Shown here: one piece after another, positions 1,638 through 36,641 of the stretch | Layout of the letters: every line of letters begins with the position of its first letter | How positions within the stretch are numbered: the first letter of the stretch is position 1 | Origin: a phage | DNA length: 50,013 nt | Reading direction: 5' to 3' (one strand) | Sequence record: OZ346186.1 | Made by a program: the position numbers and the translations under genes | Notes under the pieces: generated by a model | What the model saw: only the letters and a program-made list of their open reading frames with translations | What the model was told of the DNA's origin: nothing | Databases searched by the model: none

Positions 1638-2918
1638 ATGAGTAAATCACGAATCGTTAAGGCTGACGGCTATAACGAGATCTTTAAAGGCGAGAATTGC
1701 AAATCGCGAGTAGAGCAACCATTCTACATGCAATCAATGCCATACAAGACACTTGCTGACTTTTACGAAAAAGATGGCCTGGCAAAAAGGATTATTGACG
1801 TAGTACCAGAGGAAATGGTTTCCCCTGGCTTTACTGTTGACGGCGTGGCAGACGAGGCGGCATTCCGTTCTTTGTGGGATGAGAAGCGATTGAATGCAAA
1901 AATCATTGATGCGCTTTGCTGGTCGCGTTTGTTTGGCGGATCTGCAATCATTGCTCTTGTTCAGGATGGGCGAGCGCTCAAATCACCTGTAAAGCCTGGA
2001 GCTATTCTGGAAGATGTGCGCGTTTATGATCGTTATCAGATTCGCGTTGAAGCGCGCGAAACTAATCCCCGCAAGGTTCGCTATGGTGAGCCAGTGCTTT
2101 ACACTGTAACGCCAGGCGGAGACTTGCCGGAATACCAGGTACACTACACGCGTGTTTGCATTATCGACGGTGAGCGGATACCTAACGCAAAGCGACGCAG
2201 CAATGATGGATGGGGTGAGTCAGTTCTTAACAAGAGACTTGTTGAGTCCATTGTTGATTATAACTATTGTGAAACATTGGCAACGCAATTATTGCGGCGG
2301 AAGCAACAGGCAGTATGGAAAGCTAAAGGACTCGCTGACTTGTGCGATGATGAGGAGGGAGTTAGCGCGGCACGCCTGAGACTTGCGCAGGTTGACGATG
2401 AGGGTGGAGTAGGCAAGGCCATTGGTATTGATGCTGAGGATGAGGAATATGATGTTCTTAACTCTGATATTAGCGGCGTTGATTCTTTTCTGGAAAAGAA
2501 AATGGATCGCATCGTTTCCCTTTCAGGTATTCATGAAATCATCCTGAAAAATAAAAACGTTGGCGGCGTTAGCGCAAGCCAAAACACGGCGCTTGAAACA
2601 TTCTATAAACTGATTGAACGAAAGCGCATTGAGGATTACAAGCCTATCCTTGAATTTCTATTACCGTTCATCATTAGTGAGCAGGAGTGGAGCATTGAGT
2701 TCTCACCTTTGAGCGTACCTAGCGATAAAGATCAGGCTGAAATTCTGAATAAGAATATCGACTCAATCAGCAAGGCTATTGATGGTCAGTTCCTTGATGT
2801 TGAAGAAGCGCGAGACACGTTGCGAGCAATCGCCCCAAGCGTTAAACTAAAGGACACTAATAAAATCAAGCTGCCGGAGCCAGCGGAGCCGGAGCCAGGC
2901 ACACAGGGGAATGAGTAA
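1638..2918 (+). CDS. portal protein
   Basis: 426-aa ORF after terL; SD ggagg 8 nt upstream of ATG; position and size typical of siphovirus portal. Confidence 0.75.
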   Translation: MSKSRIVKADGYNEIFKGENCKSRVEQPFYMQSMPYKTLADFYEKDGLAKRIIDVVPEEMVSPGFTVDGVADEAAFRSLWDEKRLNAKIIDALCWSRLFGGSAIIALVQDGRALKSPVKPGAILEDVRVYDRYQIRVEARETNPRKVRYGEPVLYTVTPGGDLPEYQVHYTRVCIIDGERIPNAKRRSNDGWGESVLNKRLVESIVDYNYCETLATQLLRRKQQAVWKAKGLADLCDDEEGVSAARLRLAQVDDEGGVGKAIGIDAEDEEYDVLNSDISGVDSFLEKKMDRIVSLSGIHEIILKNKNVGGVSASQNTALETFYKLIERKRIEDYKPILEFLLPFIISEQEWSIEFSPLSVPSDKDQAEILNKNIDSISKAIDGQFLDVEEARDTLRAIAPSVKLKDTNKIKLPEPAEPEPGTQGNE

Positions 2919-5815: not shown

Positions 5816-5843
5816 TTGCACGTTTAACAAAAAATGCTATCAT
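5816..5843 (+). promoter_or_regulatory. sigma70-like promoter TTGCAC-16-TATCAT upstream of major capsid gene, with an inverted box copy in its spacer
   Basis: -35 5816-5821, -10 5838-5843; box reverse complement 5822-5840. Confidence 0.4.
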
Positions 5844-34429: not shown

Positions 34430-34474
34430 AATATACCCGATACGAGATCGGGAGTCTTAACAAAAAGTGCTATT
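34430..34474 (-). promoter_or_regulatory. conserved box + hairpin + TATATT (minus strand)
   Basis: box 34454-34474 includes stop of 34470..34664; hairpin cccgat..atcggg; -10-like 34430-34435. Confidence 0.5.
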
Positions 34475-34664
34475 CAATACGCTTTACAGTAACCAACAAA
34501 ACGCCGTCCTCATCACACAAATTATGCTCTGATATATCAAACGCTCGCATGTCAGAATGAATGAGCGTTAACATTGCGTGCATGAAGTCGTCATGTGAGA
34601 TTGAACTTGCGGCGCAGAACTTCAATATTTTGTCTATTAGCATTTGACGTAAACAATTCTTCAT
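34470..34664 (-). CDS. hypothetical ORF overlapping previous gene in +1 frame (possible frameshift partner)
   Basis: stop TAG is embedded in a box copy like other real genes; overlaps 34591..34983 by 74 nt. Confidence 0.35.
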   Translation of the reverse strand: MKNCLRQMLIDKILKFCAASSISHDDFMHAMLTLIHSDMRAFDISEHNLCDEDGVLLVTVKRIE

Positions 34665-34983
34665 CGCTCATTTCTCCGATCCTTAAAACATCCCTTACCC
34701 ATTCGTTTTGCATACCTTCCAGACTGTAAAGTTCAAACGAGAAAGGTCGATTTGCAGACCCTTTCTTACACCAGAACTTTCCACCAACTCCATCAAGATA
34801 ACCAGCGGTCATCATTCTTGCGCAAAACTCTTTTGAAACGGCGGTTGCAAACATTCTCGGCGTAAATCCTGCGGCCCTTGCGAGCCGCTCACATTCTCTA
34901 TGCTGAAATATAAATTTTGCGATATGTTGACGTGTAAACCATTCGAATGACTCACACCAGCGATACAGATCCAGAAGAAACAT
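34591..34983 (-). CDS. hypothetical protein
   Basis: 130 aa; start overlaps stop of replication protein gene. Confidence 0.5.
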   Translation of the reverse strand: MFLLDLYRWCESFEWFTRQHIAKFIFQHRECERLARAAGFTPRMFATAVSKEFCARMMTAGYLDGVGGKFWCKKGSANRPFSFELYSLEGMQNEWVRDVLRIGEMSDEELFTSNANRQNIEVLRRKFNLT

Positions 34984-34985
34984 AA

Positions 34986-36569
34986 TTACCCCAGCAATGT
35001 TGGATTTACGAAAACAACGCCATTAATCACACAAATATAATTTCTTTCTTCAAGCATCGGCAGCAGTTGCGTTTCCATACGCTTCATTACGCCAGCCTGA
35101 CCAACAAACGGCTTAACTTTTCGTGCAGCCTCATATATGGCGCGCACATTCAAGATTCCCTTGTTAGCCTTACCGTGTCGAGTGATAATCTCGATTAGTT
35201 TACCCATTTCAGCATCATCACCAGCATAGCCAGAAGCGTTGGCGGCGCTAATGTATGTTTTGCTCAACTCGCTAAACATCAGCAGTGCTTCTTGAACGGT
35301 TTCAACTTCAATCTCTTTCGACTTCTGAGGGTATCCACCAGGATTAAACCAGTTGCGGATAGTGTGCAAAACCGAAGCAATCCTGATCACCTGCTTATCC
35401 ATTTTGCCAAGAGCACCGCGCAGCATTGTATGCGAATACTTTCCGCCATCGGCAAGGTGCGGTTCCATCTCCTGACGAGCCATGTTAAGAACTCGCATTG
35501 CTGATTTGCTGATCTTAAGCTGGATGTTTGATTCACTCATGATGTTATGGATCAGCTTGAAATATTGGCTTTTCAGTTCTCCATCAACAGGTTCATAAGT
35601 AGAATCACCGTTATCATCAACAAACTTTCTACGGCCTAAAAATGATTCCTCACGCACAAGCAAATAACGCTCACTCACACCGATACCGCGCGATCCTGCA
35701 TCCATGATGGCATTTATTGTTTCATCCTGGGCAATTACCGCCATACAGCCAAGAGCTTTAAAACTCATATTGTTGTCAGCGTTTGCACGAGCTATAGAAA
35801 CATGACCATGATCCCATGCTTTTAGCACAAGTTCGCTGTTGGTTTTACGTTCGCTATTGGCATATGTCAGACCTAAAAGGCTGTTAATACTTGTTGCCTC
35901 GTCTGAAATCACAGCAAAGTTACCCTGGCGATTGTTGATTCTTGCAAGTCCTTCCGGCGTTGTGTCGGACACAGGGAAAACGATGTCACACATCTTTTCC
36001 AGTTTTTCTTCCAGATCTTCTTTCTCCTGGTACAGAGACTCCATATCAGCGCCGGAGCGCTCGCTTTTCATCTCTTTTGCAAGACCTGCCAACTTTGCCT
36101 GAATCTTTTTTCTTTCCTTCTTTCGATGATCATTAATTCTTTCCACTTCAGCAACCATAGGAGCAAGTGCCAGGCTGTTAACGGCAGATTTACCAGTTGA
36201 TGGAGGCTGGCTTGTGACAACGTAAAGAGCGGTTGGTTGATCCGTTCCGTGATACTCAACCGTGAAGCGTCCAAGCATTGCAGCAGATACACAGCCGATA
36301 AAATGCATATATGCCGATGATTCAGGGAATTGAACAGATCGAGCAATGTTTCGCGCCAACTTTCCAACAACATCAACATCATTGCCAAGAGAAATTACAG
36401 GGTAGCGATCGTTTCCGTTATTAACATCATTAACCTCACCCCAAAAGCTGGACGATTGACGGTATCCGTTAGCCTGAATGGACACGCGCACCGGAGACAA
36501 TCCTTGTGCATCAGCTAATTCGATAATTTGTTTTGGTGTTAGTTTATTGGTTTCAAACGAAAAATTCAT
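34986..36569 (-). CDS. P-loop replication ATPase (helicase/primase-associated, putative)
   Basis: 527 aa from ATG 36569 (SD aaggag); Walker A SQPPSTGKS and Walker B-like AVISDE. Confidence 0.55.
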   Translation of the reverse strand: MNFSFETNKLTPKQIIELADAQGLSPVRVSIQANGYRQSSSFWGEVNDVNNGNDRYPVISLGNDVDVVGKLARNIARSVQFPESSAYMHFIGCVSAAMLGRFTVEYHGTDQPTALYVVTSQPPSTGKSAVNSLALAPMVAEVERINDHRKKERKKIQAKLAGLAKEMKSERSGADMESLYQEKEDLEEKLEKMCDIVFPVSDTTPEGLARINNRQGNFAVISDEATSINSLLGLTYANSERKTNSELVLKAWDHGHVSIARANADNNMSFKALGCMAVIAQDETINAIMDAGSRGIGVSERYLLVREESFLGRRKFVDDNGDSTYEPVDGELKSQYFKLIHNIMSESNIQLKISKSAMRVLNMARQEMEPHLADGGKYSHTMLRGALGKMDKQVIRIASVLHTIRNWFNPGGYPQKSKEIEVETVQEALLMFSELSKTYISAANASGYAGDDAEMGKLIEIITRHGKANKGILNVRAIYEAARKVKPFVGQAGVMKRMETQLLPMLEERNYICVINGVVFVNPTLLG

Positions 36570-36596
36570 TGATGATAACTCCTTTTTGATGCGGCA

Positions 36597-36641
36597 ATAA
36601 TACCGCACCAATGCTACCCGCATTTAACAAAAAATGCTATT
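36597..36641 (-). promoter_or_regulatory. conserved box (variant) + TATTAT, upstream of replication ATPase gene
   Basis: box 36621-36641 includes stop TAG of 36637..36858; -10-like 36597-36602. Confidence 0.5.

Follow-up and report, generated by a model that had tools for sequence, protein, structure and literature searches.

Does the DNA between positions 34470 and 34983 of the phage record OZ346186.1 encode one protein or two? In the window, as we call the whole 50,013-nt stretch that was analysed, this locus carries two overlapping ORFs on the minus strand, for which the initial annotation considered a +1 frameshift, a sequencing indel or an overprinted gene, with a single interrupted protein of about 170 aa as a plausible outcome. 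Its description of the layout, two minus-strand ORFs in a +1 relation with a 74-nt overlap, proved exact in all details when coordinates, frame and overlap were confirmed from the ORF list and the sequence of the window. According to the ORF list, gene A (34591..34983, minus strand) encodes 130 aa, with an ATG start and a TGA stop at 34593..34591, and gene B (34470..34664, minus strand) encodes 64 aa, with its ATG at 34664..34662 and a TAG stop at 34472..34470. The dual-coding overlap (34591..34664, minus strand) measures 74 nt including the stop of A and comprises A codons 107-130 plus the stop and B codons 1-25. The second base of the A codons is the first base of the B codons, i.e. B lies in the +1 frame.

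With Hanrivervirus phages such as vB_EcoP_06, KarlJaspers, pSf-1 and egaa, the region shares 97–99.4% identity, and the window, judged by its sequence, is a Hanrivervirus-like, T1-like coliphage (Drexlerviridae, Tempevirinae); a search of a plasmid collection with the region gave no match. Upstream of A lies a gene for a DUF3987-type 'DNA helicase' of 527 aa (34986..36569, minus strand; Pfam PF13148, E 7.5e-43, and annotations of relatives), whose stop is 2 nt ahead of the ATG of A. A small ORF follows B and precedes the convergent spanin, endolysin and holin genes. We consider it very probable that A and B are separate conserved cistrons of one leftward unit and that B is translated from its own ATG, so that no frameshift is needed. 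The leftward transcription unit would comprise, in this order, the DUF3987 helicase, A and B, and the overlap stretch would be read in two frames, frameshifting not being the main route.

To compare the locus across Drexlerviridae, 88 unique loci were gathered, from phage records in GenBank and from IMG/VR; they represent Hanrivervirus, Warwickvirus, Tlsvirus, Henuseptimavirus, Kyungwonvirus and Vilniusvirus, as well as Eclunavirus, Tunavirus (T1-like), Sertoctavirus, Webervirus, Rogunavirinae and Braunvirinae. The A/B layout is identical in every B-containing relative examined (about ten genera), with B always in the +1 frame relative to A. The two-frame structure is kept in all close relatives (L001–L008, 97–99% nt identity), which were sequenced independently, and the ORF boundaries are also kept in genera with only 50–60% protein identity. 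This conservation excludes the sequencing error proposed initially. More generally, the idea that the frame break stems from an indel of sequencing or assembly, or from a gene recently inactivated by mutation (a pseudogene), has nothing in its favour beyond the bare appearance of two overlapping frames and, given the boundaries shared by independent genomes and by distant genera, is improbable in the extreme. Homopolymers in the overlaps are also short, 3–4 nt in most cases and never above 6 nt, and this speaks against transcriptional slippage as well. One IMG/VR locus considered as a separated A/B pair (L013) was dropped, being a messy assembly with internal duplications. About 20 'Campylobacter phage' records (MG0656xx, host Campylobacter jejuni) share 90–97% identity with these Hanrivervirus-like coliphages; their host assignment looks doubtful, and contaminants or mislabelling may be the cause.

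Protein A matches the PHROG family phrog_2794 over its full length (E 3e-59) and was found by tblastn in 835 phage records; protein B matches phrog_9539, also over its full length (E 2.5e-23), and was found in 446. Pfam gave nothing significant for either protein, a match to DUF6154 (E 0.23) being below its cut-off. The AlphaFold model of A, built on a 34-sequence alignment, has a mean pLDDT of 86 and is confident to about residue 110, with values of 55–64 for residues 111–130. In this predicted structure the N-terminal ~65 residues adopt a winged-helix fold, since the predicted three-helix bundle and beta-hairpin wing superpose on solved winged-helix domains. Protein A probably serves the replication module as a nucleic-acid-binding accessory. 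The label 'YdbL', common on A homologs, is an inherited annotation without Pfam support, and the literature on 'YdbL' in phage contained nothing relevant to the A/B gene pair. The model of B (pLDDT 93.9) consists of helix 2–19, helix 24–41 and a beta-hairpin and, as predicted, is a compact and complete small domain by itself. Foldseek of B against the PDB returned only partial CBS-domain matches of 27–30 residues (E >0.6), which we regard as meaningless.

Outside the overlap, variation across codon positions is of the coding type in each gene. Among 33 unique sequences of the 129/130-aa clade, diversity at the first, second and third positions was.18,.14 and.42 in the A-only part and.31,.19 and.50 in the B-only part. 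The tblastn spread, this codon-position pattern and the confidently predicted fold of B (pLDDT 94) together indicate that the arrangement is not a chance ORF. Moreover, A exists alone and B exists detached from A in relatives, and each is predicted to fold independently.

The start of B is embedded in conserved codons of A. In all lineages the core of A ends with ...EMMNIGEMSD[DE]ELF(G), in which D107, L110 and F111 are invariant; in the window this core (residues 1-111; 34651..34983, minus strand) closes on the family-wide motif ...GEMSDEELF. The ATG of B (34662..34664, minus strand) combines the last two bases of the A codon D107 (GAT) with the first base of E108 (GAA), and a Shine-Dalgarno-like GGAG (34674..34677, minus strand) is located 9 nt before it, within the A codons G104-E105. 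The GGAG/anti-SD duplex at the start of B amounts to -6.6 kcal/mol, compared with medians of -6.0 at the start of A itself and -2.1 at background/random sites. These features point to initiation of B by the SD-ATG route in this phage: ribosomes would start at its own ATG (34664), at this distance past the GGAG, both signals being placed inside the last conserved codons of A.

The ATG of B (GAT GAx of A) was present in 74 of the 74 unique B-containing loci and in none of the 15 B-less loci, all of which carry GAC GAC/GAA/GAG at that position (15/15). The association is weaker than these raw counts suggest, because GAT is in any case the commoner Asp codon in these genes (76%) and the lineages do not count as independent cases. 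The B frame is, in addition, closed in most lineages by a stop 1–2 codons upstream of the ATG. A good SD was found at only 44% of the B starts across genera, the duplex reaching -3 to +0.7 kcal/mol in TLS-like, Henuseptimavirus and Webervirus phages. Since the SD is missing in part of the genera, it cannot be claimed family-wide. About half of the lineages lack an SD-like sequence before the ATG of B, which would fit a variant where B is a separate protein translated through coupling to, or re-initiation from, A rather than by free SD-directed initiation. In the endonuclease-bearing relatives described below, there is an 11-nt overlap (ATGGAAAGTAA) between the ATG of B and the stop of the endonuclease gene, which is a classic arrangement for coupling. 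On the other hand, the stop of A in the window is 71 nt downstream of the ATG of B, far for back-scanning re-initiation, and the GGAG is good, optimally spaced and surrounded by unstructured RNA; on balance, we find coupling unlikely as the way in which B is translated.

A programmed +1 (or -2) frameshift in the 74-nt overlap, giving an A core–B protein of ~170 aa as the sole or a minor product, would account for several features of the locus: the +1 relation conserved in all B-containing lineages, the lack of an obvious SD for B in some genera, and the tblastn alignments of distant relatives, in which conservation switches frame at the same place: it covers residues 1 to about 112–119 in the A frame and resumes at about residue 7–9 in the B frame. 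Against it, the downstream frame of the overlap has its own conserved ATG and, in most lineages, is closed upstream of it, contrary to what programmed +1 frameshifting implies. A codon allowing +1 P-site re-pairing is absent from 30 of the 51 unique overlaps, that of the window among these, and no candidate for a conserved +1 slip site is common to more than 9 of the 51. Inspection of the overlap sequences revealed no stop/hungry-codon context of the prfB type (CUU UGA) or of the PSA type (CCC UGA). No stimulatory RNA structure was detected at 34580–34720 (141 nt), this RNA being less structured than its shuffled versions (z = +1.8; 197 of 200 shuffles fold at least as well). Finally, the 9 nt between the GGAG and the ATG of B correspond to the spacing of initiation, as opposed to the ~3 nt upstream of a shift site that stimulation involves.

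Protein databases were also searched for fused forms. An exhaustive HMMER scan of 1.84e9 representative proteins for B homologs gave 12 real matches of 49–69 aa, which align from residue 1–8 and include no A–B fusion. A word-indexed search of 5.8e9 proteins with B yielded nine matches (49–66 aa), none of them a fusion, and the 117 homologs of A, of 74–131 aa, contained no in-frame A–B fusion. Two candidates for such a fusion were rejected. A 710-aa match (P0018) was spurious, without a matched stretch; in the 153-aa ORF of Webervirus, the tblastn frames place the B homology still in +1, which identifies this ORF as the A frame running on across B. With its own ATG for B, no shift site, no RNA structure, no fusion in any lineage, and relatives where A stands alone or B lies ~470 nt apart, the single ~170-aa frameshifted protein is not upheld, and programmed frameshifting in the overlap appears very unlikely. 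The initial annotation had named the comparison with homologs as the means of refuting a single protein, and what it revealed is two separate conserved genes with their own starts. We attach just as little likelihood to the idea that a small fraction of ribosomes may shift +1 in the overlap, giving an A–B fusion besides free A and B; if true, such a minor fusion would represent conserved +1 recoding in the Drexlerviridae replication module without a recognisable slip site.

The independence of A and B is further illustrated by lineages where the two genes are not overlapped. The A-only lineages (Rogunavirinae and Braunvirinae) have no B, and their A, of 111 aa, comes to its stop immediately behind ...SDDELFG; in Rogue1, phiEB49 and JulesPiccard, a terminator hairpin and then the convergent spanin come directly after this 111-aa A. 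In another group of relatives, A and B are separated by an annotated HNH homing-endonuclease gene. This is the case in at least 7 listed records, among them BEK7, BEK1-23, BEK12B, BEC3 and Fulano1 of Hanrivervirus and tonnikala of Warwickvirus; the four BEK/BEC records match the query at 100% identity, and brachmannus (Warwickvirus), unannotated, matches at the same identity and coverage as tonnikala. The A/B junction was inspected in two of these phages, BEK1-23 and tonnikala. Their endonuclease genes (BEK1-23, L112, MN158211, 1327..1799, ~470 nt; tonnikala, L113, NC_049817, 662..1135) both correspond to positions ~34595..34625 of the window, and encode a free-standing HNH protein with an AP2-like C-terminus, placed exactly in the A/B junction. 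An A–B fusion is therefore impossible in these phages, in which both genes are intact.

In BEK1-23 and tonnikala the overlap is resolved into two single-coding copies, the tail of A and the head of B, and both are recoded. Copy 1 encodes the A tail ...ANRQQI(E/K)ALRKRYGLE* (end ...NANRQQIEALRKRYGLE*), and the old B frame meets a TAG there. Compared by hand with the tail codons of the window, it agrees at about 42% of the nucleotides, and 8 of the 12 residues are the same or similar. The A tail is kept at the amino-acid level in these de-overlapped relatives (QQIEALRKRYGLE; the corresponding tail of the window includes NIEVLRRKFNLT). Copy 2 encodes the B head M(KIM)ESKLIDEILKFCATSQISH..., differs from the window at many synonymous sites, and has the old A frame closed. 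These relatives thus offer a natural experiment, a modest curiosity, in which a dual-coding stretch was made into two single-coding copies.

In phages without the endonuclease gene the overlap contains ...GAAGCACTGCGCCGTAAATTCAAT...; where the gene is present, the recoded copies take the place of the 30 nt of the overlap that are most conserved in nucleotide sequence, and this highly conserved stretch is probably the homing target of the endonuclease. In tonnikala a Warwickvirus-type A is joined to a Hanrivervirus-type B, a mix that would be expected if flanking DNA had been co-converted during homing. The endonuclease gene of the BEK phages is itself found in two overlapping frames (L112 1327..1713 and 1647..1799), around an A-rich run GGAAGAAAGAAAGAAATGG, and in tonnikala the endonuclease is one intact 157-aa ORF; the split is either a true frameshift mutation or a sequencing error in the BEK records. 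A different HNH endonuclease gene is present in pSf-1 (L003, 2188..2700), between the helicase gene and A. Since this insertion adds to those between A and B, the helicase-A-B module looks like a hotspot for homing-endonuclease insertion.

What, then, is the status of the A tail? In the window, residues 112-130 (TSNANRQNIEVLRRKFNLT; 34594..34650, minus strand) follow the core, and this whole tail, of lineage-specific length, doubles as the head of B. Because B starts before the end of A, the A frame stays open for 19 codons more, up to a TGA that is formed by conserved His-Asp codons of B (CAT GAc; CAT GAx). According to the genus, the total length of A is 111, 116, 118, 120, 124, 128–134 or 153 aa (116 aa in Vilniusvirus, 132–134 aa in T1-like phages and 153 aa in Webervirus), and the overlap with B varies from 35 to 146 nt.

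In the same 33 sequences used above, diversity over the last 48 nt of the overlap was.16,.16 and.32 at the three codon positions in the B phase, which become.32,.16 and.16 in the A phase. This phase indicates that B is the dominant frame there. The overall diversity of the overlap is lower, its distal ~30 nt being the most conserved stretch of the region, and the value at B third positions is.32 in the overlap vs.50 elsewhere in B. Conservation of both frames in the overlap is a partly circular argument, as the same DNA is concerned. In Tempevirinae, a change of CGT to AAA/AAG means R to K in A, as opposed to V to K/R in B; the CGC that the window has in place of CGT leaves A as it is, whereas B receives A for V. 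Together with the recoded but similar A tail of the endonuclease-bearing phages, such substitutions suggest that the A tail could be more than passive read-through in Tempevirinae.

These data bear on a variant of the two-gene explanation, compatible with it, in which only B is functional in the overlap, A truly ends at ...ELF(G) and residues 112-130 are a tolerated run-on dictated by B. The most variable position of the overlap is indeed the third of B, i.e. the first of A; the length of A differs between genera, the tails of TLS and T1 are not positionally homologous to that of the window, the tail is modelled with low pLDDT, and a 111-aa A works in Rogunavirinae. Against this variant, the endonuclease-bearing relatives, freed from the constraint of B, keep I-E-x-L-R-K/R-K/R-Y/F-x-L with heavily changed nucleotides. 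The two substitutions above and the reduced diversity of B third positions within the overlap also speak against it. A run-on tail is thus possible, though we tend to doubt it, and with moderate confidence we take the tail of A to be functional in itself. Whichever holds for the tail, the reading of A and B as two separate cistrons is the same.

Overlapping genes are familiar in phages. In lambda, Rz1 lies in the +1 frame of Rz, and phiX174 also has overlapping genes. As in these cases, A and B would be two independently initiated proteins encoded in different frames of the same DNA, with the downstream start and ribosome-binding site inside the upstream CDS, and the arrangement is conserved across the phage family. 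Unlike them, A and B overlap by their ends only (74 nt, 24–25 codons) without full embedding, have no known functional link, and show an overlap that varies from genus to genus and is gone where B is absent or where an endonuclease gene splits the pair. The overprinted gene of the initial annotation was nearest the mark: the 74 nt form a genuine dual-coding overlap, but of two independent genes that share only their ends.

Programmed +1 frameshifting is known from prfB/RF2 (CUU UGA C with an upstream SD) and from the capsid and tail genes of Listeria phage PSA. The A/B locus resembles these systems in its conserved downstream ORF, which lies in the +1 frame over the 3' end of the upstream one, and in the SD-like GGAG nearby. 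In contrast to them, it has no slip site, no stop/hungry codon at the shift position, no stimulatory structure and no fused homologs, while B possesses its own conserved ATG and the GGAG is spaced for initiation. The tail assembly chaperone genes G/GT of tailed phages rely on a -1 slippery heptamer, the downstream ORF lacking an independent start. As with A/B, two ORFs of a siphovirus overlap in two frames and the pair is conserved family-wide; however, A and B belong to the replication/early module, are in a +1 relation and have separate starts.

The A/B overlap is thus real as an observation and ordinary in meaning, and it leaves the current understanding of recoding and phage biology unchanged. 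It matters mainly for annotation, which is erratic at this locus in Drexlerviridae genomes. The two overlapping CDSs are already annotated in JLBYU16, U136B, LF82-19 and K50_evo20. KarlJaspers annotates only B, without A, egaa only an 87-aa piece of A ('YdbL', from an internal Met start), and pSf-1 annotates A together with a 37-aa piece of B. Many RefSeq records lack B, which is unannotated in egaa, TLS, IME18, Shfl1 and ESP2949-1; the annotation of Webervirus prolongs A over B, to a length of 153 aa. In the Klebsiella phage RAD2 of this genus (L025, 701..1162) and in loci L098-L111, the 153-aa A frame overlaps the B frame by 146 nt. The B of Webervirus, of 67 aa, has the conserved ATG, no SD-like sequence and no annotation, only the long ORF being annotated. 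Since the arrangement is already annotated in several public genomes, it offers no novelty beyond tidying of the annotation. As a rule, A should be annotated as the conserved core of about 111 aa plus a lineage-specific tail, and B as a protein of about 64 aa starting at the ATG inside the SD[DE]ELF codons of A.

The 3' end of B coincides with a repeated element of the phage. The earlier observation that the stop of B is embedded in a copy of a box is confirmed: the 16-nt box TAGCACTTTTTGTTAA, a copy of which occupies 34457..34472 (minus strand), opens with this TAG. Next to this copy, a terminator-like G+C-rich hairpin, CCCGATctcgtATCGGG, precedes a T-rich run (34436..34452, minus strand; terminator scan) and closes the helicase-A-B unit. 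On the other side, a box copy with one mismatch (36624..36639, minus strand) is located ~55 nt upstream of the helicase start, so that helicase, A and B are flanked by two copies. The window contains 15 copies vs 0.09 expected by chance, the other 13 sites being at 5824, 9584, 20250, 27651, 30169, 31210, 37300, 39352, 40229, 41636, 42099, 44720 and 47367. In the two copies examined, the box is on the minus strand, as are the adjacent genes, and lies just after a stop or ~50–60 nt before a start. The 16-nt box is probably a phage promoter or a regulatory element delimiting transcription units. The helicase ORF, when called mechanically, extends over 34986..36623 (minus strand) and encodes 545 aa from a start at 36623, while relatives annotate 527 aa from MNFSFETNK (36569); the 18 extra codons, which reach the box copy, are probably untranslated.
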